A DNA stretch of 42,045 nucleotides, taken from the IMG/VR virus record IMGVR_UViG_3300045988_083426. One strand, given 5' to 3'. The position numbers and the translations under genes were made by a program. This DNA comes from a virus. Every line of letters starts with the position of its first letter. Position 1 is the first letter of the stretch. The notes under the pieces were generated by a model, which worked only from the letters and a program-made list of their open reading frames with translations, had not been told where the DNA came from and did not search any database. Shown one piece after another: positions 1 through 9,020 of this stretch.

Positions 1-99
1 GCTTTTTTGAAAAGCGCCTAAAAAACTGCACGGAAAGCGGCCTGATTTCAGGCCACTTTTGAGACAACGGCCCCAAAATATGGTAGGATGGCCGTAGGA
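1..99. repeat. Terminal direct repeat, copy 1 (circular-assembly overlap)
   Basis: gcttttttgaaaagcgcc...ggatggccgtagga is identical to 41947-42045. Confidence 0.95.
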
Positions 100-287
100 T
101 GAACGAGCGAATCAAAGAGAGAAGGGAATACTTCGGGCTGAGCCAGCGGGAGCTGGCCCGGCGGGTCGGCGTGGGAAAGACCACGATCTCAGAAATAGAG
201 GGAGGGGATCGGCTGCCGAACGTTGAGACGGCGATACGCATAGCGAGAGCACTGGAAACCACCGTGGAGCAGCTATGGGGAGGGTAA
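99..287 (+). CDS. XRE-family helix-turn-helix regulator (62 aa)
   Basis: LSQRELARRVGVGKTTISEIEGG is a classic HTH_3 signature. Divergent from the integrase across the circular junction. Confidence 0.85.
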   Translation: MNERIKERREYFGLSQRELARRVGVGKTTISEIEGGDRLPNVETAIRIARALETTVEQLWGG

Positions 288-288
288 C

Positions 289-393
289 ATGGACAACAGG
301 AAGGTATTGATAGACGCAATCCTGCGCCTGCTGGCGCTGGCCGACGCGGAGCAGCTGCGGCTGGTGTATATCGCGGCGCTGAACTTGATTTAA
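289..393 (+). CDS. 34-aa microprotein, family copy 1 (MDNRKVLIDAILRLLALADAEQLRLVYIAALNLI)
   Basis: ATG lies 1 nt after the xre stop. Same length as, and about 20/34 identical to, the ORFs at 37681 and 38191. Confidence 0.55.
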   Translation: MDNRKVLIDAILRLLALADAEQLRLVYIAALNLI

Positions 394-401
394 GTATAGC
401 T

Positions 402-457
402 ATACGTAAAAATACGTAAAAAAAGATGTTGACATACGTGTGAATACGTGCTATACT
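402..457 (+). promoter_or_regulatory. hicAB promoter with four ATACGT boxes
   Basis: -35 TTGACA (429-434), 17-nt spacer, TG-extended -10 TATACT (452-457). ATACGTAAAA x2 at 402-421; ATACGTG x2 at 434-440 and 444-450, inside the spacer. Confidence 0.6.
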
Positions 458-483
458 ATATAACAGAAAGCGGGGGTGAGGCA

Positions 484-669
484 GTGAGATACAGCGAGCT
501 GGAAAAGGAACTGAAGAAAGCGGGATGCAAGGTATACCGCGAGGGCGCGAACCATAGCATATGGTACAGCCCCGTCACCGGGCAGAAATTTCCGGTGAGC
601 CGCCACAAAACGGAGGAGATCCCGGCGGGAACACTGAAATCCATACGCAGAGCGGCGGGGCTGGAATAA
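484..669 (+). CDS. hicA: HicA-family mRNA interferase toxin
   Basis: Sequence runs ...KKAGCKVYREGANHSIWYSPVTGQKFPVSRHKTEEIPAGTLKSIRRAAGL, with the HicA pattern G..H....vp.H..ei..g.l..I...aGl. GTG at 484 follows a GGGGGTGAGG SD; the track ORF begins at 448. Confidence 0.8.
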   Translation: MRYSELEKELKKAGCKVYREGANHSIWYSPVTGQKFPVSRHKTEEIPAGTLKSIRRAAGLE

Positions 670-711
670 GCCCCACCGCTCCGGCGGAAACAATAGGAAC
701 GTGAATGATAA

Positions 712-735
712 CAAGAGCAAGAGCAAGAGCAAGAG
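712..735. repeat. Hexanucleotide microsatellite (CAAGAG)x4
   Basis: caagagcaagagcaagagcaagag in the hicA-hicB spacer. It creates the spurious RARARA N-terminal extension of the track ORF at 705. Confidence 0.9.
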
Positions 736-755
736 CAACAACTGGAGGAATGAAT

Positions 756-1151
756 ATGGCGAAATATGTGTATCCGGCAGTTTTTACACAGGAAGCAGAG
801 GGAGGGTATTCGATCAACTTCCCGGATCTGCCGAATTGCTTCACGTCGGCGCCGACGCTGGAGGAGGGGCTTGAGATGGCGGCAGACGTGCTCTGCCTGA
901 CGCTGTACGGCATGGAGGAGGATGGGATCACGCCGCCCGCGCCGTCTGACGTGCGCAGCATTCCCGCCGCGAAGAACGAGCTGACCACGCTGGTGCGCTG
1001 CGACACGATCGAATACCGCAGGTTCTACGACAACAAGGCCGTGAAGAAAACGCTGACGATTCCCTCGTGGCTGAACACGATGGCCGAGCGTCAGGGCGTG
1101 AACTTCTCACTGACGCTGCAGAACGCACTGAAGACAGAGCTGCATATCTAA
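756..1151 (+). CDS. hicB: HicB-family antitoxin
   Basis: MAKYVYPAVFTQEAEGGYSINFPDLPNCFTSAPTLEEGLEMA is a HicB/UPF0150 N-domain, with a C-terminal DNA-binding-like tail. GGAGGA SD lies 6 nt upstream of the ATG at 756. Confidence 0.8.
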   Translation: MAKYVYPAVFTQEAEGGYSINFPDLPNCFTSAPTLEEGLEMAADVLCLTLYGMEEDGITPPAPSDVRSIPAAKNELTTLVRCDTIEYRRFYDNKAVKKTLTIPSWLNTMAERQGVNFSLTLQNALKTELHI

Positions 1152-1188
1152 GAGCACCCCTGTCCCGATTGTGGGACAGGGGTGCTCT
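1151..1188. terminator. Bidirectional stem-loop between hicB and the leftward operon
   Basis: agagcacccctgtccc / gggacaggggtgctct, a 16-bp perfect stem with a 6-nt loop. Confidence 0.7.
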
Positions 1189-1206
1189 GTTAATCATCGC
1201 GTGGAC

Positions 1207-1422
1207 TTACTCTTCAATCTGGTCGGTCATTTGCTGGAGTTTGGCGACGAGCTCTTTCGCAAGATCAAGGTTCATCGTAAGTGAAGCGACGGGTTCCTCG
1301 TTGACCTTGGAAAAGGAATCGTCGTTTTCCTCAAAGTCCGGAAAGCGCTGCACAAACTGGAGCACTATTTCGCCGCCGTCGGCGCGGACAGAGACACGAA
1401 AACCGTTGGTATAGCTGTACAT
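1207..1422 (-). CDS. DUF3467-like small protein (71 aa), third gene of the toxin-antitoxin operon
   Basis: YTNGFRVSVRADGGEIVLQF...LTMNLDLAKELVAKLQQ resembles my recollection of the DUF3467 pattern. AGGAGG SD upstream. Confidence 0.5.
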   Translation of the reverse strand: MYSYTNGFRVSVRADGGEIVLQFVQRFPDFEENDDSFSKVNEEPVASLTMNLDLAKELVAKLQQMTDQIEE

Positions 1423-1437
1423 GTCAGGGGAACCTCC

Positions 1438-1821
1438 TTACATTTCCTTCAGGTCGACAGATTCAAAATCCGGCGTATGAGACGAAAGCGTATTCCACTT
1501 GCCGGGGAAGTCGGCAACTTTACCGGAAGTGGGACGCGCGGAGCGGGGCGTTCCGAACGGGGACCGGACGGGTATATCCAGCTTTGTCGCGATATGCACG
1601 AGGGACTGCAACGTGAAATTACAATCCCCGCGTTCCCATTTTGACACCATGCCCTGAGACACGCCCATAAACTCCGCGAACTGTTTCTGGCTCATGTTTC
1701 GCTTGACACGCTGGGCGACGATCTCGCCGCAGATCACGCCGCAAAGCCCGTTGAAGGCCACTTCCTCTGCGGAGAGAGAGACAGAAAGGGAGGTAAGCAG
1801 ATCATTCATACCTTGAGACAT
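1438..1821 (-). CDS. XRE-family HTH antitoxin (HigA-like)
   Basis: MSQKQFAEFMGVSQGMVSKWERGDCNFTLQSL is an HTH motif. ATG at 1821 follows an AGGAGG SD and lies 1 nt after the upstream toxin stop. Confidence 0.75.
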   Translation of the reverse strand: MSQGMNDLLTSLSVSLSAEEVAFNGLCGVICGEIVAQRVKRNMSQKQFAEFMGVSQGMVSKWERGDCNFTLQSLVHIATKLDIPVRSPFGTPRSARPTSGKVADFPGKWNTLSSHTPDFESVDLKEM

Positions 1822-1822
1822 A

Positions 1823-2215
1823 TTAAAGTTCCTCCTTCTTTTGGCGCAGACGTTCCGCAGCCTGCGGAATGTAGCCGGAATAGTCCGTCTTACGCTTGCC
1901 TGCGCGTTCATGAAACGCGAGCAGAAGAACCGGGGATTGATTCGCCAGAAATGCATACAGGATGCGCAGATTAAAGCCTTTTCCCGCCAAGTGCATACTG
2001 TAAAGCCCGCCGCCGATGTTCTCGAACTCCTTATGCCTGACAGCATGAATCCCCAGAGCCTTCAGCATGGTAAGACGCATCACCAAGAGCCGGAATACAT
2101 CCGCTTCTGTACCGCTGCCGGCGATCAAGGCCAACAATTCCGGCGTGAAATCATCATGTGTGTCTATCATCGCCAAATAATTCAGCAACTGACGCAGGGC
2201 ATCCTCTTTGTTCAT
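1823..2215 (-). CDS. Gp49-like (DUF891) RelE/HigB-superfamily toxin
   Basis: GGGLYSMHLAGKGFNLRILYAFLANQSPVLLLAFHERAGKRKTDY matches the Gp49-like core. AAGGAG SD precedes the ATG at 2215; the track ORF extends to 2278. Confidence 0.7.
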   Translation of the reverse strand: MNKEDALRQLLNYLAMIDTHDDFTPELLALIAGSGTEADVFRLLVMRLTMLKALGIHAVRHKEFENIGGGLYSMHLAGKGFNLRILYAFLANQSPVLLLAFHERAGKRKTDYSGYIPQAAERLRQKKEEL

Positions 2216-2268
2216 TCTATGCTCCTTATTCATGTAAGATATTAACCTATAAATAATATCTTTATTCC

Positions 2269-2308
2269 AAAATATCACTCATAGCAGATATTGTCAAGAA
2301 AAATTGAC
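2269..2308 (-). promoter_or_regulatory. Promoter and palindromic operator of the Gp49-like/XRE operon
   Basis: On the minus strand: -35 TTGACA (2292-2297), 17-nt spacer, -10 TATTTT (2269-2274). GTCAAG-N5-TTGAC palindrome overlaps the -35. Confidence 0.55.
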
Positions 2309-2440
2309 TTGAAACAGGTTATAAAATCGAAAGCCCTTAGAATGGGCACTCTCCTTATCGTGGGAGACCTGTTTTCCAAAGGCTTATATCCTTAGCATAG
2401 AGCTTTGCAAAACAGATGTCAAGAAATATTTGAAAAACGG

Positions 2441-2484
2441 CAAAGAACCCTGTCCGGGGTATGGGACAGGGTTCTTTGTTTTTG
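2441..2484. terminator. Bidirectional rho-independent terminator
   Basis: caaagaaccctgtcc / ggacagggttctttg stem, with T-runs on both strands. Confidence 0.8.
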
Positions 2485-2494
2485 GGGCGCGGGG

Positions 2495-2884
2495 TTATTC
2501 CGCGTCTTTTTTTTGCGCATCGCGCTGGGCGAGGAGCTTGTCGGCCATGTCGGAGAGGAGCTGCCACTGGGGCGGCTCGAGCCGGGCGAGGACGGAGACA
2601 AACTGCCGCTGAAACTCGCTGTCCGGGTCGCGGATGATGGACATGCAGAACTTCGTGATCTCCTCCTCGCGGGAAAGCTGCAGGAACATCTCCCCCTCGC
2701 CGCTGCGCAGCCAGCTCTCCGAGACACCAAACTCCCGGCAGATGGAGACAACTACGGAATCCAGCGGAACACGGGCGCCGCTCTCGTAGGCGGCGACGGT
2801 TCCTTGCTTTACGCCGATTCTCGCTCCGAAATCTGTCTGGTTGAGTTCGAGCGCTTTGCGCAAAAGTTTTATGCGTTCGTTCAT
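2495..2884 (-). CDS. CI-like XRE-family repressor (129 aa)
   Basis: LNQTDFGARIGVKQGTVAAYESGARVP is an HTH motif, followed by a non-peptidase C-terminal domain. AGGAGG SD; divergent from the rightward early genes. Confidence 0.8.
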   Translation of the reverse strand: MNERIKLLRKALELNQTDFGARIGVKQGTVAAYESGARVPLDSVVVSICREFGVSESWLRSGEGEMFLQLSREEEITKFCMSIIRDPDSEFQRQFVSVLARLEPPQWQLLSDMADKLLAQRDAQKKDAE

Positions 2885-2903
2885 ACCTACCTCCTTCGAG
2901 TGC

Positions 2904-2982
2904 AGTATAGCATAAGCAATATTGTATTGCAATATTAATTTATGGAAAAAGTATTGACAATGCCATATCGTTGTGGTATTTT
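2904..2982. promoter_or_regulatory. Divergent immunity promoters with palindromic operators
   Basis: Leftward: -35 TTGCAA (2927-2932), 17-nt spacer, TG-extended -10 TATACT (2904-2909). Rightward: -35 TTGACA (2954-2959), 17-nt spacer, TG-extended -10 TATTTT (2977-2982). CAATATTG and TATTGCAATA palindromes lie between them. Confidence 0.65.
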
Positions 2983-3007
2983 TACATTGCGACCTAGATA
3001 TATGCGT

Positions 3008-3024
3008 CACGCAAAGTATGCGTG
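3008..3024. promoter_or_regulatory. U palindrome copy 1 (CACGCAAAGTATGCGTG)
   Basis: Perfect 6-bp arms with a 5-nt spacer, 17 nt upstream of the ATG at 3041. Confidence 0.7.
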
Positions 3025-3040
3025 CAGGATAGGGGGTGAA

Positions 3041-3181
3041 ATGGTGGAGAAAGAAAGAATCAGAGAATTGCTCGAAAAGCAGCTGGAACTGCTTTCCGAG
3101 CAATCTCGGGGGGACCCGGCTATGCTGCCACAGCTCACGGACAGCATGGTGCAGGTTGTCAGTCTACTCAGGAGTCTTTGA
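3041..3181 (+). CDS. Small protein (46 aa), MVEKERIRELLEKQLELL...
   Basis: AGGGGG SD plus ATGGTGGA start context, shared with the other U cassettes. Confidence 0.6.
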   Translation: MVEKERIRELLEKQLELLSEQSRGDPAMLPQLTDSMVQVVSLLRSL

Positions 3182-3362
3182 GGGAGCCTGAGCGGATCTT
3201 ATTCAGATAGTCCTGCTTCAATTCGCGGCATGCATCAAAGTACATGGATTGAATCTCAGACGGGCTTTTCCTGGACAGATCCTGCGAGCGGAGATACAGG
3301 AGCGCAAGCGCCTCTGTGCGATTGGACGGGAATGTGCTCAATTTCACTTCGCTTGACATCAC
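3168..3362 (-). CDS. Small protein (63-64 aa)
   Basis: AGGAGG SD inside cassette A1. Its 3' end overlaps the 3041 gene by 14 nt. Confidence 0.65.
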   Translation of the reverse strand: MMSSEVKLSTFPSNRTEALALLYLRSQDLSRKSPSEIQSMYFDACRELKQDYLNKIRSGSLKDS

Positions 3363-3384
3363 AAATCACCTCCTTTCCGCTTCC

Positions 3385-3414
3385 ATTTTATCACGGGGGC
3401 GGGAAGAGATACAA
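3385..3414 (-). promoter_or_regulatory. Leftward promoter in cassette A1
   Basis: -35 TTGTAT (3409-3414), 18-nt spacer, TG-extended -10 TAAAAT (3385-3390). Confidence 0.55.
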
Positions 3415-3419
3415 GTGAG

Positions 3420-3471
3420 AAAAGCTGCCCTCGTGGGACACCGCGAAGGGGGGGCACGAGGGCAGCTTTTT
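3420..3471. terminator. Bidirectional hairpin in cassette A1
   Basis: aaaagctgccctcgtg / cacgagggcagctttt, a 16-bp stem with U-runs in both directions. Confidence 0.7.
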
Positions 3472-3503
3472 GCAGTGGTATGTACTGCAAGGGCGTGAAG
3501 CGT

Positions 3504-3520
3504 CACGCAAAGTATGCGTG
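3504..3520. promoter_or_regulatory. U palindrome copy 2
   Basis: CACGCAAAGTATGCGTG, preceded by GCGTGAAGCG, which can alternatively pair with TCACGC. Confidence 0.7.
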
Positions 3521-3533
3521 CGGAGGGGGTGAG

Positions 3534-3668
3534 ATGGATGAATGCGACAGAAACGCTGAAAAGGCTGCTGAACACCGATTGGAGCGGGCGAGAGCCGATG
3601 TTCTATTTTTGCAAATCAACCGTCTGCGAGCCAGTCGGAGCAAGATGCGGCAAGACGGTTGTAGGTGA
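3534..3668 (+). CDS. Small ORF downstream of U copy 2; reading frame ambiguous
   Basis: GGAGGGGG SD then ATGGATG. Frame 1 (3534) gives 44 aa. Frame 2 (ATG 3538, ends 3792) gives MNATETLKRLLNTDWSG... but largely shadows the minus gene 3616-3963. Confidence 0.3.
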   Translation: MDECDRNAEKAAEHRLERARADVLFLQINRLRASRSKMRQDGCR

Positions 3669-3963
3669 AAAAATACTTCCGAAGATCAGCGAGTTCTTCC
3701 GGCTGGATATCCGGAAAGAAGCCGTTCAGATGCCCAGAAAGAAACTGCTGCACGGCAAAGACGGCGGCCGCAATGACGCGCTGCTCGTCTAGGGTAAAGC
3801 GAAAATCACTTCGGACGAGCTTCTGTGAGACAGAGAAAGCGATGGATTCGTTGATGGTTTGCTGGCGGGCGGTATCCGCTTCAAATTCCACAACGAGAGG
3901 CAAGGCGGCCAAGACGGCCTCTGCGTCAGCAGGCGTCAGGCGGATGGGACGGCGCTTTTTCAT
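3616..3963 (-). CDS. Hypothetical protein (115 aa)
   Basis: AAAGGAG SD before the ATG at 3963. Non-repetitive, protein-like sequence. Confidence 0.7.
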   Translation of the reverse strand: MKKRRPIRLTPADAEAVLAALPLVVEFEADTARQQTINESIAFSVSQKLVRSDFRFTLDEQRVIAAAVFAVQQFLSGHLNGFFPDIQPEELADLRKYFFTYNRLAASCSDWLADG

Positions 3964-3995
3964 GTGGGGTATCTCCTTTCAAGATTGATTCTCAG

Positions 3996-4034
3996 TAGAG
4001 CGTAACACAAAGCAGAGTGAGATACAAGTGCGTG
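3996..4034. repeat. Intergenic cassette B, copy 1
   Basis: tagagcgtaacacaaagcagagtgagatacaagtgcgtg is identical to 5032-5070. Confidence 0.9.
3999..4027 (-). promoter_or_regulatory. Leftward promoter in cassette B1
   Basis: -35 TTGTAT (4022-4027), 17-nt spacer, TG-extended -10 TACGCT (3999-4004). Confidence 0.5.
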
Positions 4035-4050
4035 CAGGATAGGGGGTGAG

Positions 4051-4263
4051 ATGGTGGAACCACGCGAGTGCAGCTACGAGGAGTTCTGTGTCGGGATGTT
4101 GGAGTGTCTGCTCCACTATCACGAGCGGGTCACGATGCCTGTGGGACAGAACCTATGCAAAGAGATGGGAACGGAGAAGTGCCCCGAACGACTGGTTACA
4201 GACCAGTACGCCGAGGTACTTCGGGAAGCTATCCGGTGTGTCCGGATTGTTCACGATCTTTGA
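4051..4263 (+). CDS. Small protein (70 aa), LLHYHER...LREAIRCV family, paralog 1
   Basis: AGGGGG SD plus ATGGTGGA. Shares the LLHYHER and LREAIRCV blocks with the 4613 gene. Only the right half-site (TGCGTG, 4029-4034) of the U palindrome is present upstream. Confidence 0.7.
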   Translation: MVEPRECSYEEFCVGMLECLLHYHERVTMPVGQNLCKEMGTEKCPERLVTDQYAEVLREAIRCVRIVHDL

Positions 4264-4447
4264 GAAGACACGTGACAGCGGCACGCACACATTCTATGCA
4301 CTCCGACGCGGATCCGGGCGCATTATCGCAGGTATTTACGAGAAAACGCCCCGGCGCGCTGTCGTCCAACACGGTGACAGGCAGTTGGACTTCGCGGAGA
4401 TACAACGGACAGGAGACGGTTATGACAGACCGCCGCAAAAGAATCAC
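4229..4447 (-). CDS. Possible small protein (about 69-72 aa)
   Basis: Uses the SD carried by cassette A2 (GTG or TTG start). Hand-counted GC3 is about 58%. Fits the alternating pattern of the array. Confidence 0.4.
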   Translation of the reverse strand: MILLRRSVITVSCPLYLREVQLPVTVLDDSAPGRFLVNTCDNAPGSASECIECVRAAVTCLLKDREQSGHTG

Positions 4448-4462
4448 CTCCTTTCCGCTTCC

Positions 4463-4492
4463 ATTTTATCACGGGTACAGGAAGAGATACAA
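4463..4492 (-). promoter_or_regulatory. Leftward promoter in cassette A2
   Basis: -35 TTGTAT (4487-4492), 18-nt spacer, TG-extended -10 TAAAAT (4463-4468). Confidence 0.55.
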
Positions 4493-4497
4493 GTGAG

Positions 4498-4547
4498 AAA
4501 AGCTGCCCTCGTGGGACACCGCGAGGGGGACACGAGGGCAGCTTTTT
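4498..4547. terminator. Bidirectional hairpin in cassette A2
   Basis: Same 16-bp stem as 3420-3471, with a slightly shorter loop. Confidence 0.7.
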
Positions 4548-4579
4548 GCAGTGGTATGTACTGCAAGGGCGTGAAGCGT

Positions 4580-4596
4580 CACGCAAAGTATGCGTG
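4580..4596. promoter_or_regulatory. U palindrome copy 4
   Basis: CACGCAAAGTATGCGTG, 17 nt upstream of the ATG at 4613. Confidence 0.7.
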
Positions 4597-4612
4597 CAGG
4601 ATAGGGGGTGAG

Positions 4613-4816
4613 ATGGTGGACAATCGCACGGAAGTGCGGCTGAACGTGCTGCAGGGGCTGCTCCACTATCACGAGCGGATGATGGCCGGGGGCATACGGA
4701 TGCAGGATCCGAACGGGACGGAGACAGAAGTACCCATCGAAAAGTTCTACGATGGGTACGCCGATGCACTGCGGGAGGCCATCCGCTGCGTGAAACTGGT
4801 TAACGGTCGGACATGA
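4613..4816 (+). CDS. Small protein (67 aa), LLHYHER...LREAIRCV family, paralog 2
   Basis: MVDNRTEVRLNVLQGLLHYHERMM...ALREAIRCVKLV. Same SD and start context as 4051. Confidence 0.7.
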   Translation: MVDNRTEVRLNVLQGLLHYHERMMAGGIRMQDPNGTETEVPIEKFYDGYADALREAIRCVKLVNGRT

Positions 4817-5000
4817 CGGTCTTGTAGACGGACGTGAGACAGTTCCGGCAGACAGGATCCGGGCAGTAATTATCGCAGCCGTTGGGATGTAGGAAGCGAG
4901 TTTCGTTCACGGTGAGTTCCCGAACCCAGACTTTCCGCTTGATGAAGTCCTTCGGGCACTCCACGGTAACGGGAAATTCGCGAATATCTGCGGTTTTCAT
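4800..5000 (-). CDS. Small Cys-rich (putative zinc-binding) protein (66 aa)
   Basis: CPKD...GCDNYCPDPVCRNC cysteine cluster. AAAGGAG SD. 17-nt convergent overlap with 4613-4816. Confidence 0.65.
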   Translation of the reverse strand: MKTADIREFPVTVECPKDFIKRKVWVRELTVNETRFLHPNGCDNYCPDPVCRNCLTSVYKTVMSDR

Positions 5001-5031
5001 GGCAGGCTCCTTTCTGCGGATGGCCTCCGGT

Positions 5032-5070
5032 TAGAGCGTAACACAAAGCAGAGTGAGATACAAGTGCGTG
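5032..5070. repeat. Intergenic cassette B, copy 2
   Basis: Identical 39-mer to 3996-4034. Confidence 0.9.
5035..5063 (-). promoter_or_regulatory. Leftward promoter in cassette B2
   Basis: -35 TTGTAT (5058-5063), 17-nt spacer, TG-extended -10 TACGCT (5035-5040). Confidence 0.5.
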
Positions 5071-5076
5071 AAGCAT

Positions 5077-5093
5077 CACGTAAAGTATGCGTG
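5077..5093. promoter_or_regulatory. U palindrome copy 5 (one arm mismatch)
   Basis: CACGTAAAGTATGCGTG, preceded by GCGTGAAGCA. Confidence 0.6.
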
Positions 5094-5104
5094 CAGAAGG
5101 GGAG

Positions 5105-5320
5105 ATGAGGCAGATGAGAAGAAAGTCAATGCACTGCTCGGTAGAGCCGACGGATGACAGACCACTGTTTACGCATGAGCCGCAGATCAAAGCCGGGCAG
5201 CTCGATATGATGCCGGTAGGCGTGGTCGTCGCCACGCCGCTGGGGGATGACCCAAATGACATGCAGGGCTACCCGGGCAGCTGGGAAAAAAAGGCCGCAC
5301 TATGGGAGCGCGTCGAATGA
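5105..5320 (+). CDS. Small protein (71 aa)
   Basis: AAGGGGAG SD then ATG at 5105, downstream of U copy 5. Confidence 0.55.
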   Translation: MRQMRRKSMHCSVEPTDDRPLFTHEPQIKAGQLDMMPVGVVVATPLGDDPNDMQGYPGSWEKKAALWERVE

Positions 5321-5857
5321 GACCATGGGGCCGATCGTCACGGGGAGCGTAAGAAGCAGTTCCGGCAAGGGATCATCTGTGAAGTCGTGGCTCCAATAGT
5401 GATGCAGGCTACTTTCAATTTTGATGACGGCTTGAATATAGTCATTTTCCAAAGCCGGCGCAAGTGAACAGTCTATGGCCGATAGACGCAGGTGATTCGC
5501 GTCATAAGCATTGCACGGTTTGTCATAGTACACCTCGAAAATGCGGGAAGGAGGGCTGATACGAAAAATCCTTTCCCACAGTTTGAAGTGCTCAAGTTTT
5601 GGGACGGCATAAAAGCTCGAGAGCCGAGACGGCGCGTCCGGATAGTTCGATTTGCGGAACAATTCGGCCCGCACTTCCAGATTGTGAGAGGCAATTGCGG
5701 AAGTGGAAAGCACCTGTGGCGAGCCGCTGAACAGGTTTTCTTCGGAGATTCCCCATTGAGACAGTTCCGCAAGCCCGAAGCTGTTCGGCACTGAAAAGCC
5801 GCAGATGCGCTGTCCAGTGGACAATGTTCCATTGCGATCCAGATGGTAAGCGATCAA
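5300..5857 (-). CDS. Hypothetical protein (185 aa), orphan
   Basis: AGGAGG SD 7 nt before a TTG start at 5857. Contains EVRAELFRKSNYPDAPSRLSSFYAV, which may be DUF2441-like (unverified recollection). Confidence 0.6.
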   Translation of the reverse strand: MIAYHLDRNGTLSTGQRICGFSVPNSFGLAELSQWGISEENLFSGSPQVLSTSAIASHNLEVRAELFRKSNYPDAPSRLSSFYAVPKLEHFKLWERIFRISPPSRIFEVYYDKPCNAYDANHLRLSAIDCSLAPALENDYIQAVIKIESSLHHYWSHDFTDDPLPELLLTLPVTIGPMVSFDALP

Positions 5858-5881
5858 AAGATTCACCTCCTTCCTGCGGCC

Positions 5882-5910
5882 AGTATAGCACGGCGGGGAG
5901 GAGGGGACAA
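5882..5910 (-). promoter_or_regulatory. Promoter of the 185-aa gene
   Basis: -35 TTGTCC (5905-5910), 17-nt spacer, TG-extended -10 TATACT (5882-5887). Confidence 0.55.
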
Positions 5911-5923
5911 GGGGGTGGGGCGT

Positions 5924-5940
5924 CACGCAAAGTATGAGTA
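5924..5940. promoter_or_regulatory. U palindrome copy 6 (right arm degenerate)
   Basis: CACGCAAAGTATGAGTA, directly upstream of the AAGGAGGGGGG SD of the XRE gene. Confidence 0.5.
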
Positions 5941-5957
5941 AGGAGGGGGGTGAAGGT

Positions 5958-6143
5958 GTGGAACTTAGCTTAAAGGCAGCCAGAGTGAATGCGGGATTGA
6001 AGCAGTCAGAGGTCTGCGAACAACTCGGCATTGCGCGGGGGACACTTTCGCGGTGGGAGAGCGGCAAGGGAACCCCGCGGCTGAAACAGCTGATTATGCT
6101 CTGCGGGATGTACGGCGTAAAGGCAGAGGATATCCGAATATGA
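5958..6143 (+). CDS. Small XRE-family HTH protein (Cro- or Aca-like, 61 aa)
   Basis: LKQSEVCEQLGIARGTLSRWESGKGTP is an HTH motif. GTG at 5958 lies 6-7 nt after the SD; an alternative ATG at 5934 lacks an SD. Confidence 0.75.
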   Translation: MELSLKAARVNAGLKQSEVCEQLGIARGTLSRWESGKGTPRLKQLIMLCGMYGVKAEDIRI

Positions 6144-6146
6144 GAA

Positions 6147-6172
6147 GAGCAGGGTGCTGCAACACCCCGCTC
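6147..6172. terminator. Stem-loop between convergent genes
   Basis: gagcagggtg / caccccgctc, 9 of 10 bp paired, 6-nt loop. Confidence 0.5.
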
Positions 6173-6189
6173 AACTGGTTAGAGGTTAT

Positions 6190-6336
6190 TCACTTTTTCT
6201 TGGTGCTGGGACGGGTCTGAGACAAGGCACTGCCGGCGACACTCTTGGACGCCGCGCTGTAGCGGCCGTCGGTCAAAATCTTGGAGGCTTTTGACACGAC
6301 AGACTTGCTTGTCTGCTTGGGATTGCTCTTGGCCAT
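6190..6336 (-). CDS. Small basic Ser/Lys-rich protein (48 aa)
   Basis: MAKSNPKQTSKSVVSKASKILTDGRYSAASKSVAGSALSQ. AAAGGAG SD. Confidence 0.6.
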   Translation of the reverse strand: MAKSNPKQTSKSVVSKASKILTDGRYSAASKSVAGSALSQTRPSTKKK

Positions 6337-6367
6337 TCGTTCACGCTCCTTTCGTACGTTTGTACTA

Positions 6368-6396
6368 ATTATAGCACATAAGCGGCAAAAACACAA
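6368..6396 (-). promoter_or_regulatory. Strong leftward promoter
   Basis: -35 TTGTGT (6391-6396), 17-nt spacer, TG-extended consensus -10 TATAAT (6368-6373). Confidence 0.6.
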
Positions 6397-6554
6397 GGCG
6401 CTAAAAGATAAAACTGGAATCCGCTGACTGAGGAGGTGACACAGTGTGCTGAACGAGGAGAAGCAGGGCGAGCGCAGGAGCCTTTCGGAGCTGATGGGCA
6501 AGAGCGCGGTTCTCGGCCGAGGAGCTGGCCGCGCTGGTGAGGAGCTGAGAGGTC

Positions 6555-6881
6555 ATGGCGAGTAAGCAGTCAACCTGCTGGGTGATCGAGCACCCGGAGA
6601 TCGGGACGGCGTTTGTCGTGGCCGACAACTGGGAGCAGGCCACGGTGCGGGCGGCGGAGTTCTGGGGCGTGAGCTGGGCGCGGACGGTATCCGGCATGGA
6701 GCTGGTGCGGCGAAAGGACGCGCGGAAGAACATCTGCTGCCGCTGCGGCCAGATCTTCCACGGGAGCGGGGATCTGTGCGGCGCGTGCGAGAAGATCCTG
6801 CGGACGGAGGAGGACGAGACGAGCCGCCGACTGCGGGAGACCTGGTATCTGGGGAGAAAAGACGCCGCCTTCGGGCGGTGA
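6555..6881 (+). CDS. Hypothetical protein with C-terminal CxxC...CxxC zinc ribbon (108 aa)
   Basis: ICCRCGQIFHGSGDLCGACEKIL; high GC3. Confidence 0.65.
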   Translation: MASKQSTCWVIEHPEIGTAFVVADNWEQATVRAAEFWGVSWARTVSGMELVRRKDARKNICCRCGQIFHGSGDLCGACEKILRTEEDETSRRLRETWYLGRKDAAFGR

Positions 6882-7004
6882 GAAACAAACGAGGAGGAAC
6901 ACAGGATGATCGACGAGAGGAGCCTGACGCGGGCGATGAAGGAATCGTGGCGCTGGAGCGGCTGCTGGAGCAGACGCCGCTGGTATAAGAGGAGGACAGG
7001 CGAC

Positions 7005-7274
7005 ATGTACGGGCAGTGCTGGAAATGCGGCAAGTGGGGGCAGATGGAGCGGCACCACATCTTCGAGGGCGTGGCCAACCGGAAGAAATCGGAGGAATAC
7101 GGGCTGGTCGTGCTGCTGTGTGGGGAGGAGTGCCACCGGAACGGCCGGGAGGCCGCCCACCGCTGCGGCGAGACGGCGCTGCGGCTGCACCGGTGGGGGC
7201 AGCGGAAGTTCATGGCGGAGCAGAACGCGACGGAGGAGGACTTCCGGCGGGTGTTCGGGAAGAGCTATCTGTAA
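7005..7274 (+). CDS. HNH/NinG-like zinc-finger nuclease-fold protein (89 aa)
   Basis: CWKCGKWGQMERHHIFEGVANRKKSEEYGLVVLLCGEECH is a CxxC...HH...N...CxxCH pattern. AGGAGG SD before the ATG at 7005; the track ORF starts at 6906. Confidence 0.6.
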   Translation: MYGQCWKCGKWGQMERHHIFEGVANRKKSEEYGLVVLLCGEECHRNGREAAHRCGETALRLHRWGQRKFMAEQNATEEDFRRVFGKSYL

Positions 7275-7286
7275 GGAGGAAGAGCT

Positions 7287-7379
7287 ATGACGGTTACATG
7301 GGTACTGGCCTACATCGGGGCCGCGGCGGTGGCCGCAGGGTGCGTGCGGCTGGTCGAGCGGATGGAGGGGCGGCGATGA
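7287..7379 (+). CDS. Possible 30-aa membrane microprotein
   Basis: AAGGAGG SD then ATG at 7287. MTVTWVLAYIGAAAVAAGCVRLV is hydrophobic. Its stop overlaps the next start (ATGA). Confidence 0.4.
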   Translation: MTVTWVLAYIGAAAVAAGCVRLVERMEGRR

Positions 7380-7810
7380 AAGCGAAAAATCTGCTCGAGG
7401 GACTGGAGCGGTACGACAATTACGCGGTATGTCCCGGGTGCCAGAGCTGTGAGGGGAAGAAGGTGATCGCATGCCGCGACCTGATCTGGCAGGCGGCGGC
7501 GCGGATCCGCGGGCAGGAGCGGCAGATCGAGTGCCTGATGGATGCGAACGAGGGGCACCGGCGGATGCTGGTGGAGCTGCACCAGAGGCTTGCAAAGACG
7601 GAGCTGGGCTGGATCTCCACGGAGGAGGCGCAGCCCGTGCGCTCGGGGGACTACTGGGTGCGGACGGCGGGCGGGATCTATACGGTTTTGCCGTACTCGA
7701 CGCGGCACGGGGCATGGAACGCGATGGACGAGCAGGAAACGGCGCTGCGGGCCATCCCGGTGACGCACTGGATGGAGATTCTGCCGGCGGTGGAAGGGGA
7801 CAGGCCATGA
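7376..7810 (+). CDS. DUF551-like phage protein (144 aa)
   Basis: C-terminal ...SGDYWVRTAGGIYTVLPYS...VTHWMEILPAVEG resembles the DUF551 signature. Confidence 0.55.
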   Translation: MKAKNLLEGLERYDNYAVCPGCQSCEGKKVIACRDLIWQAAARIRGQERQIECLMDANEGHRRMLVELHQRLAKTELGWISTEEAQPVRSGDYWVRTAGGIYTVLPYSTRHGAWNAMDEQETALRAIPVTHWMEILPAVEGDRP

Positions 7811-8130
7811 TGCACAGGGCGGAGACGATGCGGTGCGGCGCGTGCAGCAATTTTATCCCGGCGCGGTCACGGCGGGCGCCGAAGCGGGGCTTTTGCCGGC
7901 TGGCGGGGCACAACACCTGCGTGAGCGAGAGCACGCGCGTCTGCCGGACGGACTTTGACCCGGTGCAGCCGATCGTCCCGACGAACCGGGACAGGCTGGA
8001 CGCGATGAGCGACGCACAGCTTGCGCAGTGGCTGGAGCGATTGACAGGAAACCCGGCGGAGAACCTGCTGCGATGGCTGCGGGCGCCGGTGGAAACGAAA
8101 GAGGAGGAAACACCATGGAAAACGATCTGA
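7807..8130 (+). CDS. Hypothetical Cys-containing protein (107 aa)
   Basis: ATGA start/stop overlap with the upstream gene; high GC3. Confidence 0.55.
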   Translation: MMHRAETMRCGACSNFIPARSRRAPKRGFCRLAGHNTCVSESTRVCRTDFDPVQPIVPTNRDRLDAMSDAQLAQWLERLTGNPAENLLRWLRAPVETKEEETPWKTI

Positions 8131-8567
8131 GAGACCGCGCGGAGCGGATGGCGTGGAAGCTGCGCGCCTGCGCGGACGACGAGCAGTGCGCCGCGTGCGC
8201 GGAGGAGTGCGGCGTGAACGACGGGACGCTGCTGCTGGCGGCGGCGCAGACCATCCGGGATCTGCTGGATGGCGCGGGCGGCGAGGAGCGCACAGAGGGC
8301 GAGACGGAAACGCCGTCGTGGATCAAGGCGGCCTATGAGGCGGGGACAGAGCACTACGACACCGTGCTCGACCGGGGGCTGAGCGCGATCGGGCGCGAGG
8401 TCATGGACATCGCGAACCGGCACAAGAAGGATCTGCCGCTGGTGATCGCGGTGCTGCGGCTGACGATCGCGCCGCTGGAGCGGCACATGACCGACGAGGG
8501 GCAGGCGATGCTCCAGTGGATTCTGCGCAACGCCGCGGCGGTGGATCTGACGGACGCGCAGAAATAA
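8115..8567 (+). CDS. Hypothetical protein (150 aa)
   Basis: GAGGAGG SD before the ATG at 8115. Confidence 0.6.
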   Translation: MENDLRDRAERMAWKLRACADDEQCAACAEECGVNDGTLLLAAAQTIRDLLDGAGGEERTEGETETPSWIKAAYEAGTEHYDTVLDRGLSAIGREVMDIANRHKKDLPLVIAVLRLTIAPLERHMTDEGQAMLQWILRNAAAVDLTDAQK

Positions 8568-8681
8568 AAAAAGGCCCCGGCGGAGCGGCAACTCCGTCGG
8601 GGCAGTCAGATGAGGGTCAAATGACAACCAAGTACACCCCTATGATAACCGACGGAGGGGAGAAAGGCAAGGAAAAATTTT

Positions 8682-9020
8682 ATGACGGAAGCGCAGAGGG
8701 CGGCAATCGCGGCCATTGAGAGCCAGCAGCCGCAGAAGCACAACACCGTATGGATGGCGGGCGAGCAGCTCAAGGAGATTGCCCGCAGCGAGCCGGGGTC
8801 GGCAGAGCTGCTGGCGAAGGATCTGGCGGGCAAGGGCATGACGATCGCGGACGCGGAGAAGAAGATCGCGGAGCTGGCGCGGAAGAACCGGGACGGCAAC
8901 TGCGGATGCGTGAGCAGCGAGGAGGCGGAGGACGTTCTGCGGGCGTTTTACGGTCTGCCGCAGCGCGGGGAGGCGCGGGAGGAAGCACCGAAGGTGCTGG
9001 ATCTCGCGGACTTTCTATGA
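8682..9020 (+). CDS. Hypothetical protein (112 aa), possibly PcfK-like
   Basis: Immediately precedes, and is translationally coupled to, the PcfJ-like gene. The family call is unverified. Confidence 0.5.
   Translation: MTEAQRAAIAAIESQQPQKHNTVWMAGEQLKEIARSEPGSAELLAKDLAGKGMTIADAEKKIAELARKNRDGNCGCVSSEEAEDVLRAFYGLPQRGEAREEAPKVLDLADFL

Follow-up and report, generated by a model that had tools for sequence, protein, structure and literature searches.

T4-like phages carry mobile regulatory cassettes known as promoter-early stem-loop (PeSL) elements (Arbiol 2010, PMC2839356; Comeau 2014, PMC4122927). These elements resemble the modules described here, from the early region of a temperate, high-GC gut Clostridia prophage, in that a terminator stem-loop is followed by a promoter as a composite, that the repeats border small ORFs whose function is unknown, within a hyperplastic region, and that indels and replacements among very close relatives are bounded by repeats as exchange points. 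However, PeSLs belong to lytic T4-like myoviruses and share no sequence similarity with our modules, which have a promoter part that is weak by consensus, separate convergent gene pairs, and additionally hold a promoter directed leftward, a conserved 5' leader in which hairpins overlap, and a Shine-Dalgarno (SD) sequence with start codon.

The start-associated sequences (SAS; GGGATAGGAGCCC) and extended SAS (ESAS) of Cluster K mycobacteriophages (Pope 2011, PMC3203893) likewise form a conserved, asymmetric, SD-containing block a few nucleotides 5' of the starts of several non-structural genes from families that are unrelated to each other, all in one orientation. Some copies follow an imperfect 17-bp inverted repeat, its left repeat better conserved than its right and compensatory changes absent, and the string GGATAGG is common to both systems. 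The host phylum differs, and our locus has 5-6 copies within 3 kb as opposed to 11-19 over half a genome; its inverted repeat, a compact 6+5+6 dyad, has the size of a hairpin and is accompanied by a third arm, and its repeats coincide with recombination breakpoints and reach the first codons. Cluster O mycobacteriophages also carry a 17-bp dyad (TGTTCGGNNNCCGAACA), repeated many times, often near gene starts, and with no known binder (Cresawn 2015, PMC4351075). In that case, more than 30 copies with invariant arms are spread genome-wide, unlinked to start codons and reported to be uninvolved in rearrangements (PMC4351075).

Autoregulated anti-defence operons of the Aca type and CI/Cro operators resemble our locus in that small early genes have a short dyad close to their 5' end and a helix-turn-helix (HTH) gene nearby, but here the dyad lies downstream of the -10 and not over the promoter, and tracks neither an XRE cassette nor CI specificity; nor do the cassette proteins match PADLOC families. 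At the RNA level, Firmicutes mRNAs can carry 5'-terminal stabiliser stem-loops, for example in the ermC, aprE and phage SP82 leaders. Our leaders similarly place a small stem-loop a few nucleotides from a predicted 5' end and, after it, a strong SD free of structure, although that 5' end is a prediction and the PR and b-type copies would be internal.

Results

A palindromic leader within composite modules

The window analysed is a viral stretch of 42,045 nt. The palindrome CACGCAAAGTATGCGTG is perfect at 3008-3024, 3504-3520 and 4580-4596, has one mismatch at 5077-5093 (left-arm C>T) and two at 5924-5940 (right arm TGAGTA), with the loop AAGTA on the + strand in all five copies. A motif scan found no further copies elsewhere in the 42 kb, and the observed number was reached in 0 of 100 shuffles (chance expectation 0.09); the core GCAAAGTATG plus dyad is confined to 3000-6000. 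The remnant at 4028-4034 (caaGTGCGTGcaggatagg) aligns to 5061-5102 as the product of a deletion between two GCGTG repeats, a deletion also carried by the related contig L001. An upstream arm reads GCGTGAAGCGTCACGC at 3493-3508 and 4569-4584, and GCGTGAAGCATCACGT at 5066-5081, where pairing is via G.U. Copies end 11-17 nt 5' of the rightward start codons (3041, 3534/3538, 4613, 5105 and 5958) and about 7 nt from the G-rich SD. The preliminary description was thus correct in its palindrome positions, in treating the 4029 copy as a deletion product, in seeing a GCGTGA arm upstream of three copies, and in placing the element in the 5' leaders of six rightward genes, where its distance to the SD is short and fixed.

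The palindrome is the core of a leader of about 50 nt rather than a free-standing motif. An optional GCGTGA arm is followed by TCACGCA-AAGTA-TGCGTG, CAGGATA, and a strong SD and start, GGGGGTGAGATGG; this SD/start block occurs in 4 copies within 3 mismatches. The upstream arm can pair with the central arm (hairpin H1), or the palindrome with itself (H2). The PR leader copy has H2 without H1, so the copies do not all share any one hairpin. Two of the leader copies belong to a full 155-bp module, the other parts of which are a leftward promoter, a bidirectional terminator and a -10 remnant resembling that of PR. Modules divide convergent two-gene cassettes across a 3-kb low-GC variable region (Table 1).

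Long repeats surround the palindrome, and had been overlooked previously: 3364-3521 recurs at 4442-4597 (155 bp, 95-99% identical) and 3996-4040 at 5032-5076 (45 bp, 96% identity).

Table 1 Features of the variable early region (window coordinates).
Feature	Coordinates	Strand	Details
CI-like repressor, 129 aa	2495..2884	-	Pfam HTH_3 1.3e-11; PHROG transcriptional regulator/repressor families
PR-like promoter	2954..2982	+	TTGACA-17-TATTTT, TG (extended -10); 10/12 matches
Leader copy 1, PR context c	3004..3044	+	H2 3008-3024, CAGGATA, SD/start GGGGGTGAAATGG; without H1 arm
Cassette A	3041..3362		Rightward ORF 3041-3181 (46 aa); convergent leftward ORF 3168-3362 (64 aa)
Module a1	3364..3521		Repeats D3, D4, I1; H1 3493-3508, H2 3504-3520
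a1 leftward SD and extended -10 promoter (putative)	3364-3416	-	TTGTAT-N18-TGaTAAAAT, read by eye
a1 bidirectional terminator	arms within 3409-3435 and 3455-3481		Terminator-like matches on - strand
a1 hairpin/-10 remnant	3472-3488		GCAGTGGTATGTACTGC
Cassette B	3520..3963		SD/start 3520-3540; rightward ORF 3538-3792 (or 3534-3668); convergent leftward ORF 3616-3963 (115 aa)
Module b1, palindrome deleted	3964..4050		Leftward SD/promoter, GAGATACAAGT, remnant GCGTG 4028-4034; repeat D9; same in L001
b1 SD/start	4037-4054		GGATAGGGGGTGAGATGG
Cassette C	4051..4438		Rightward ORF 4051-4263 (70 aa); leftward ORF 4229-4438
Module a2	4442..4597		95-99% identical to a1; leftward promoter, TGGTATGTA, H1 4569-4584, H2 4580-4596
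a2 bidirectional terminator	arms within 4487-4513 and 4531-4557
Cassette D	4613..5000		Rightward ORF 4613-4816 (67 aa); leftward Cys-rich ORF 4800-5000 (66 aa)
Module b2	5001..5104		Leftward SD/promoter, GAGATACAAGT, H1 5066-5081 (G.U), H2 5077-5093 (C>T, G.U), SD GGGGAGATGAGG
Cassette E	5105..5857		Rightward ORF 5105-5320 (71 aa); leftward ORF 5300-5857 (185 aa, phrog_5663 / DUF2441-like)
Module f	5858..5957		Degenerate H1, degenerate palindrome 5924-5940 (TGAGTA), SD GGAGGGGGGTGA
Module f leftward promoter	5910-5882	-	TTGTCC-17-TATACT
Cassette F	5958..6336		XRE/HTH_3 gene 5958-6143 (61 aa; Pfam HTH_3 2.2e-13); leftward ORF 6190-6336 (48 aa)

Among the extended -10 boxes proposed earlier, that of the PR-like site at 2954-2982 stands: the promoter scan rates it strong, and it is the sole consensus promoter-like site on the + strand within 2300-6600. 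The TGGTATGTA boxes at 3476-3484 and 4552-4560 have no -35, lack the final hexamer T and were not called by the scan. The segment 3415-3545 has a predicted fold of -55 kcal/mol (z -5.0). Cassettes C and D are paralogous in both genes (repeats D8 and D10; translations), and the rightward gene of C has homologues in other phages; neither cassette A protein matched a Pfam or PHROG family.

Cassette exchange among related prophages

Related loci were compared on 13 or more contigs from independent samples. Flanks matching window positions 1-2713 and 6506-9000 are 97-99% identical, yet cassette order varies in nearly all relatives: A,B,C,D,E,F in the window, A,G,B,C,E in L001, A,B,C,H,I in L005, G,J,H,D,I in L006, C,I in L007, J,H,A,B,C,I in L018, H,A,D,E in L025, and C,H,A,D in IMG/VR 3300045988_080504. 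The cassette A pair occupies other positions in L001, L002, L018, L019 and L025. Alignment ends cluster at window positions 3011/3024, 3364, 3405, 3537-3544, 4442, 4483, 4583, 4616, 5061 and 5905, all within modules. The same cassette is found behind different upstream contexts (A behind c, PR' or e; D behind a or e; E behind b or a; I behind a, b or e). Metagenome assembly may mis-join at 155-bp repeats, yet many junctions lie at no more than about 30 bp of homology and several recur in independent samples.

Sister lineages also duplicate leaders at cassette borders, and these are unrelated and non-palindromic: L037 has two copies of a 45-nt PR leader without the palindrome, L042 two copies of GGAGGTGAGGACAGATGGCGAA, L038 three copies of a hairpin element and two of an SD/start block, and L036 two copies of an SD/start block. 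The multiplicity of the leader is better explained by duplication of a module with each cassette than by the single factor gating six sites proposed earlier. In L035 the variable region is entirely absent, and PR drives the early operon directly.

Loss and variation of the palindrome

The palindrome has been lost three times independently, each time by deletion between short direct repeats: GCGTG/GCGTG (window 4029 and L001), AAGT/AAGT (L006, ~5838) and GGGGGTG/GGGGGTG (L027 compared with window module f). Only 5 of the 14 homologous variant types form all six H2 pairs (6/6), and the other nine have an imperfect H2; C25>A is present in 9/14 types and in every copy seen of the diverged L027 and L033. 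Because it is repeatedly deleted and often imperfect, the palindrome itself is dispensable. H1 is fully paired (6/6) in + strand RNA in 11/14 types, as against 7/14 for - strand RNA and 6/14 as a strict DNA dyad. One H1 copy, GCGTGG/CTGCGC, combines one compensatory change with two G.U pairs. The G.U-biased pattern of H1 (about five substitutions against one or two) is non-significant, and the leader copies are kin through recent recombination, which leaves covariation tests little power.

Alternative pairing, H1 (3493-3508) against H2 (3504-3520), is indeed permitted by the third arm, but the two-state switch that it had suggested finds no support: the SD is unpaired in every predicted leader fold, the stability of the leader hairpins does not exceed that of shuffled controls (z -0.1 to -1.4), and H2 is so frequently imperfect. 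A search of Rfam gave no match.

The CI-like repressor has an HTH N-terminal domain and a C-terminal part common to all relatives. Three types of the HTH domain occur among these relatives, while the palindromes are unchanged; PR of two of the three immunity types lacks the palindrome, and in L018 and L025, which have the immunity type of the window, the PR copy is degenerate (TGAGTG and TCAGTG). Among the related contigs examined, the XRE cassette is found only in the window and L033, the latter with a longer module f that keeps half the terminator, although the palindrome persists in most relatives; the cassette's own copy is the most degenerate one in both.

Discussion

Our best overall reading, which is probably correct, is that the palindrome-bearing leader forms part of a portable, recombining terminator/promoter/leader/ribosome-binding-site module; that it is a recombining leader module is highly likely. 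The leader would descend from the PR leader of this phage lineage, and copies of it would have come to precede every rightward gene in the variable early region, which is built of convergent two-gene cassettes; the full form of the leader also includes the leftward promoter, the intrinsic bidirectional terminator and the PR-like -10 remnant. If the small hairpins have any activity, it may be in the rightward mRNA. In transcripts beginning after the terminator, the first base of H1 would lie about 3 nt from the predicted 5' end, where H1 might be a 5' stabiliser or an insulator without sequestering the SD; both this role and the 5' end are conjectural, as the candidate promoter TGGTATGTA is non-consensus and escaped the scan. 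We tentatively lean towards such an RNA-level role over a further DNA binder.

A DNA operator for another dimeric regulator that every relative retains (candidates include the HTH proteins at 99-287 and 1438-1821), or for a host factor, is somewhat unlikely. The binder would recognise GCGTGA-N4-TCACGC or else CACGCA-N5-TGCGTG, roughly +2 to +30 relative to the relay promoters, and thereby silence, in lysogens, both the rightward genes and read-through into replication genes; it might instead modulate the abutting leftward promoters. Contexts b, d and f place the element within about 5 bp of a leftward -35. A 16-17 bp dyad-symmetric site is typical for HTH dimers, with half-sites spaced by about one helical turn, and the ESAS authors preferred DNA binding on similar ground, compensatory changes being absent (PMC3203893). 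CI operators are missing from the relay promoters despite the essential genes further downstream, and in L035 PR drives the early operon directly; if a post-terminator promoter is active, lysogens would therefore seem to need some repressor, and this favours an operator near +1. However, no cognate protein was found, and the 42-kb scan placed no copy near HTH genes outside the variable region. Either dyad is strictly symmetric in just 5-6 of the 14 variant types, right arms are degenerate throughout lineages L027 and L033, and the two dyads cannot both be occupied alike because one half-site is common to both. Copies also persist in contexts b and e with no evident rightward promoter, and it is the SD distance that is almost constant while promoter distance varies.

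It is unlikely that the dyad is a functionless passenger that recombination duplicated and homogenised along with the rest of the PR leader, and that is now decaying through palindrome-stimulated deletions. The three independent deletions, the many uncompensated right-arm changes, the palindrome-free leaders duplicated in sister lineages, and the retention of genes whose leader has been deleted (C in the window and L001, I in L006, D in L027) all agree with such decay. Against this, the left arm and loop (GCGTCACGCAAAGTAT) are far better conserved than the right arm, changes in H1 mostly preserve + strand pairing, and drift alone is unlikely to keep a third complementary arm.

Very unlikely is a role in RNA processing or antitermination, the hairpin being a boxB/nut-like loading site by which PR transcripts pass two bidirectional terminators, or an RNase III/Y site separating cistrons. 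A 6-bp stem with a purine-rich pentaloop directly downstream of PR, and strong terminators between PR and essential genes, would suit it. But the first terminator lies 5' of the first palindrome in L001 and L006, no boxA-like partner was seen and no N-like protein identified, Rfam is unmatched, and the stem is too short for RNase III. The original proposal, an operator of CI or of the 61-aa XRE protein in an Aca-like autoregulated anti-defence array, is extremely unlikely: PR does have one copy downstream and the XRE gene one upstream, and both proteins are HTH_3, but the palindrome follows neither, and the comparison among relatives leads us to hold with very high confidence that it is no operator for either.

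The portable module would give incoming cassettes transcriptional insulation and a ready-made translation start. As the alignment breakpoints show, the modules are homology patches for the swap, insertion and deletion of cassettes among prophages that are otherwise 97-99% identical.

Palindrome copies and their leaders

The 17-bp palindrome H2 (CACGCAAAGTATGCGTG) occurs where the preliminary description had placed it, in three perfect and two imperfect copies. By chance 0.09 copies would be expected, and none was found outside these sites in 42 kb. All copies carry the asymmetric loop AAGTA on the + strand and are followed, after 11-17 nt, by a rightward ORF's start codon; at the promoter PR, the palindrome lies at about +18 to +34. 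Also borne out were the third arm, which with TCACGC forms the overlapping hairpin H1, and the origin of an isolated half-site by deletion. Only one of the three -10 boxes that had been proposed belongs to a consensus promoter; the other two (TGGTATGTA) are PR-like -10 remnants that lack a -35 element and the last hexamer T (-7), and were not called by the promoter scan.

Features of the window and parts of the 155-bp module
Feature	Position (strand)	Sequence or remark
Lysogeny-side genes	99-287, 448-1151, 1438-2278	small HTH_3 gene; HicA/HicB toxin-antitoxin pair; weakly Gp49-like ORF with HTH_3 partner, toxin-antitoxin-like
CI repressor gene	2495-2884 (-)	
Consensus promoter	2954-2982	TTGACA-17-TATTTT with TG
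H2, perfect	3008, 3504, 4580	
H2, imperfect	5077, 5924	one and two mismatches, respectively
H2 remnant	4028-4034	deletion between two GCGTG repeats (aligned to the 5061-5102 copy)
H1	3493, 4569, 5066	GCGTGA-AGCG-TCACGC; with a G.U pair at 5066
-10 remnants	3476, 4552	
ATG in right arm of H2	3019-3021, 3515-3517, 4591-4593, 5087-5089, 5934-5936	
Longer repeats enclosing H2	3364-3521, 4442-4597	155 bp, 95-99% identity
Module part 1		leftward gene's SD and extended -10 promoter, - strand TTGTAT-N18-TGaTAAAAT (our reading of the sequence)
Module part 2		bidirectional intrinsic terminator; 15-16 bp stem, A-tract, U-tract
Module part 3		GCAGTGGTATGTACTGC, aligns with the PR -10/+1 region
Module part 4		hairpin H1, GCGTGA/TCACGC
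Module part 5		palindrome H2, overlapping H1
Module part 6		SD/start block GGGGGTGAGATGG
Element with U-tract	3421-3472	neighbours H1 and H2
Second module type	3996-4040, 5032-5076	no terminator; -35 of leftward promoter abuts H1
Alignment-end clusters	3011/3024, 3364, 3405, 3537-3544, 4442, 4483, 4583, 4616, 5061, 5905	
Cassette gene with database match	5300-5857	phrog_5663/DUF2441-like
XRE gene (cassette F)	5958-6143	61 aa; generic HTH
ORF MLNEEKQ...GHGE	6446-6565	looks like a deletion fusion
Conserved gene	6555-6881	
Tail-region ORF	27588-36743	single ORF, 3051 aa
Low-GC segment	37000-38400	GC 49%; peptide-coding segment duplicated (SQLDKFILSQWEP.DKNYFGG at ~37583 and ~38066)

Twelve aligned leaders share, on the + strand in all, the block GGGGGTGA(G/A)ATGG, which is invariant or nearly so. 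The genes A-I downstream of it are unrelated to one another (letters name cassettes and their rightward genes, A-F in the window and G-J in relatives). The palindrome is missing from the leaders of C, L001-A, L006-G, L006-I and L027-D (L numbers denote related or matched contigs). A coding leader, as assumed by one gene caller for P0001 (MYCKGVKRHAKYACRIGGEM...), was rejected because no SD precedes that ATG, and is further excluded by gene E being out of frame with the leader ORF and by an SD G-tract of 4, 5, 6 or 8 G. Before gene I, the run has 4, 6 or 8 G depending on the contig (L013 about 1285; L007, L018, L020; L005 about 6225), with 5 G in most other leaders; homopolymer slippage, or sequencing or assembly noise, could account for this. 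The right arm of the palindrome also holds an ATG, unlikely as a true start since it has no SD. In leaders A and D it opens a mini-ORF of 4 codons that the TAG within GGATAGG closes; it shares the reading frame of E, of F and of B as read from its second ATG. In the L033 homologue of C, where both ATG and GTG at the normal start are lost, this upstream ATG is the sole in-frame start. A -10 box within the palindrome (CAAAGT or AAGTAT) was dismissed, with 3 of 6 positions matching, no TG and no -35 conserved across contexts. An intrinsic terminator function of H1 or H2 was likewise rejected, as no U-tract lies beside either hairpin on either strand; the neighbouring element has one.

A composite module between convergent cassettes

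The palindrome is enclosed in longer repeats, and the 155-bp module thus delimited comprises six parts running from a leftward promoter to the rightward start codon. Five to six modules lie within 3000-6000, between six convergent gene pairs, each consisting of a small rightward and a small leftward ORF with overlapping 3' ends. This variable region has a GC content of ~54%, against ~65% in the rest of the prophage. Both genes of cassette C are paralogous with those of D, which supports the ORFs as real. When searched against Pfam, PHROGs, PADLOC and NCBIfam, the small cassette proteins gave no match but two, the DUF2441-like protein and the XRE protein. Gene G, a predicted membrane protein, overlaps its leftward partner convergently by ~80 bp (L029 2300-2740; L001 3219-3655; L006 4073-4510), and the pair stays together even in L029, an unrelated phage with an S24-type repressor, which suggests that convergent pairs are functional two-gene units.

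At least 13 independent samples yielded related contigs, in exact-match scans or in look-ups anchored on proteins, and one of these contigs belongs to the bin of an uncultured Clostridiales MAG, UMGS1515. The relatives match the window at 97-99% identity outside the variable region, whereas within it nearly every contig has its own cassette order; at least eight orders were observed.

Cassette orders in the variable region
Contig	Order
Window	A,B,C,D,E,F
L001	A,G,B,C,E
L005	A,B,C,H,I
L006	G,J,H,D,I
L007	C,I
L018	J,H,A,B,C,I
L025	H,A,D,E
IMG/VR 3300045988_080504	C,H,A,D

The ends of alignments to the window cluster at positions that all fall within modules, from the H2 loop through the first codons. 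Across relatives, the same gene can follow different upstream contexts. Some modules are hybrids, namely a b/a form in L001 (a being the 155-bp type) and, in L033, AAGC/AAGC as well as half-terminator forms. Crossover positions vary, which fits homologous or illegitimate recombination and not a site-specific system. An attC-type integron site was accordingly rejected, the breakpoints being spread over loop, arms, SD and start codon; the GTTRRRY core of attC sites is absent as read from the sequence, and no recombinase was found among the Pfam-screened ORFs of 1-9000. The relatives are all metagenome assemblies, and a repeat of 155 bp may lead to mis-joined contigs; in favour of the orders as assembled, several junctions recur across independent samples and many lie at homologies of ~30 bp or less. 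The 1101-bp contig L004 (ERZ860445 NODE-25250) reads B-C-module a-B with a 20-bp exact terminal overlap, giving a cycle of 1081 bp, equal to the spacing of the two a modules. It was rejected as an excised circle and is most likely an assembly-graph loop through the 155-bp repeat, although an excised circle or tandem duplication would look alike.

Beyond the cassettes, an MLNEEKQ gene of 50 aa precedes one of 82 aa (MPKVNLARD..., no Pfam match) in L001 (5750-6176) and other relatives; most of both is missing from the window. The lysogeny-side genes are conserved in all relatives.

Constraint on the hairpins

The dyad itself is only weakly constrained. The palindrome has been lost three times by deletion between short flanking direct repeats, the downstream gene and its SD being retained. 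All six H2 pairs are present in 5 of 14 homologous variant types. The substitution C25>A (TGAGTG) is found in nine of the 14, including every copy seen in L027 and L033, the pair of lineages that have diverged furthest. A palindrome perfect over all 17 bp is thus a trait of the window's own lineage. The best-conserved stretch is the left arm plus loop, GCGTCACGCAAAGTAT. H1 keeps six pairs in 11/14 types when read as + strand RNA, compared with 7/14 for the - strand and 6/14 as a strict DNA dyad, and one copy, GCGTGG/CTGCGC, combines one compensatory change with two G.U pairs. About five pairing-preserving substitutions in H1 against one or two that break pairing amount to a trend in the sequences, not proof, and covariation tests are underpowered with copies that are 85-100% identical and related by recombination.

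A two-state RNA leader, as had been proposed, finds little in these copies to recommend it: the hairpins predicted in the leaders have unremarkable stability (z -0.1 to -1.4), and the predicted folds leave the SD unpaired in every copy, so that nothing suggests a switch gating ribosome access. An Rfam search (E-value up to 1) returned nothing relevant, only two sub-threshold chance matches elsewhere in the region.

We weakly and tentatively favour an action of the hairpins at the RNA level. In transcripts starting after the terminator, H1 would begin ~3 nt from the predicted 5' end, a position known from 5' stabilisers of Firmicutes, and it would also stop upstream sequence from pairing with the SD. 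The module as a whole is, in our reading, a portable terminator/promoter/leader/RBS unit, which would insulate each accessory cassette and supply its translation start, and whose repetition, as the comparison of relatives shows, makes it the substrate for cassette exchange, duplication and deletion.

Candidate regulators and origin of the copies

The main rival to an RNA-level action is a putative operator for some conserved or host regulator. Its best argument is that relay promoters without CI operators upstream of essential genes should need silencing in lysogens. We consider this rival doubtful. The operator and regulon interpretation that had been put forward from the window is largely not supported. 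Among the relatives, CI joins three different HTH domains to a common C-terminal part while the palindromes are identical; no palindrome is present at PR' and PR'', the PR of the two other immunity types; and L018 and L025 have CI as in the window, yet a degenerate PR copy. Autoregulation by the XRE protein in the manner of Aca regulators meets a similar difficulty: among the related contigs examined, its cassette is present only in the window and L033, and in both its own palindrome copy is the most degenerate. It is thus very improbable that CI or XRE is the protein cognate to the palindrome, and the comparison with Aca regulators does not hold. We accordingly rejected both a CI/Cro operator set, whose sites do not co-vary with the recognition domain, and an Aca-type autoregulated anti-defence operon, since the dyad is not kept with the XRE gene; no cassette protein matched a PADLOC family.

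Cassette H carries, in rightward orientation, a copy of the L001-type CI that is limited to its HTH N-terminal domain (MNERIRELIKAL...GEGDMFL; Pfam HTH_3/CI-like; compare L001 2119-2508). It is found in L002 (- strand, about 1020-630), L006 (5140-5400), L018, L019 and L025, in phages having a different CI of their own. It lacks a stop codon of its own, and its frame stays open across the leader and continues into the gene behind it (A, D or I). The product could be a fusion protein, or a repressor acting in hetero-immunity or as a decoy.

That six sites imply one factor, as had been argued, does not follow, since sister lineages duplicate palindrome-free leaders likewise. The conserved gene at 6555-6881 led to more distant relatives. 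In one of them, L035, the early operon follows directly after CI and PR, with no variable region in between. In L037 the phage's own 45-nt PR leader, which is palindrome-free, is duplicated before a second rightward gene; in L042 a D cassette is inserted and the next gene's leader and first codons are duplicated (GGAGGTGAGGACAGATGGCGAA); L038 has three copies of a different hairpin element and two of its SD/start block, and L036 two of the latter. Copying of leader and start where cassettes meet is thus a general trait of these phages, and the palindrome is simply the content of the duplicated leader in the window's lineage. Homologues of gene D in unrelated phages lie in plain cro operons with no such element. 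A neighbour-gene search for more diverged copies added just L027 and L033 as lineages with this leader, the rest having other leaders, and blastn (word size 11) against INPHARED phages gave no match. Exact 18-mer matches in L008-L011, L014-L017, L021-L024 and L026 come from unrelated organisms without similarity to the window and were discarded as chance, as were those in L039 and L040. That the palindrome is pure passenger sequence throughout is, in our estimate, unlikely.

Nut-like or processing roles are minor candidates: a lambda-type nut was rejected because in L001 and L006 the first terminator lies upstream of the first palindrome, and no conserved boxA-like block is present in the aligned leaders. 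Highly improbable, finally, is an expression adaptor in which the overlapping hairpins, whether folded as RNA or present as cruciform or single-stranded DNA, are recognised by some conserved factor of phage or host that gates the whole array and directs cassette capture and exchange; if true, it would be an integron-like accessory-gene platform in temperate Clostridia phages, with a leader/RBS site in place of attC.

Comparison with known systems

Two known systems resemble the module. In T4-like phages, PeSL cassettes are composite terminator/early-promoter motifs that bound the shuffled ORFs of hyperplastic regions (PMC4122927). They are closest to the module in function, although it is no sequence member: here too the repeat stands at the borders of variable small ORFs flanked by conserved genes, and indels or replacements between close relatives end at repeats. 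As to the succession of terminator and promoter, the terminator here is strong (z -5.0), with only the TGGTATGTA remnant as promoter part. In Cluster K mycobacteriophages, the SAS/ESAS elements consist of an SD-containing block 3-7 bp from start codons, of unknown function, half of the copies being preceded by imperfect 17-bp inverted repeats without compensatory changes (PMC3203893). The leaders described here likewise have an asymmetric SD block in one orientation near the starts of unrelated genes, and before some of these blocks stands an imperfect inverted repeat that lacks compensatory changes. Only GGATAGG is shared with the SAS/ESAS sequence family (GGGATAGGAGCCC; actinobacteriophages), and with a different host and phage group the module is an analogue, not a member. 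It differs from both systems in host and lifestyle, in its convergent gene-pair cassettes and in joining every signal, terminator through start codon, in a single unit. To our knowledge, no repeat combining a bidirectional terminator, divergent promoters, a hairpin leader, an RBS and a start codon, with convergent-pair cassettes, has been reported before.

These observations carry a warning: several identical dyads in front of genes do not by themselves establish a regulon, as duplication of a module can leave the same trace. Should the hairpin have a role, the natural deletion and arm variants are ready-made mutants. The module is also a practical handle to find and delimit accessory cassettes, whose small ORFs of unassigned function are possibly exclusion or counter-defence genes. 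It extends the notion of composite regulatory repeats that drive accessory-gene shuffling, familiar from the PeSLs of lytic T4-like phages and echoed by the SAS/ESAS repeats of mycobacteriophages, to temperate prophages of uncultured gut Clostridia.
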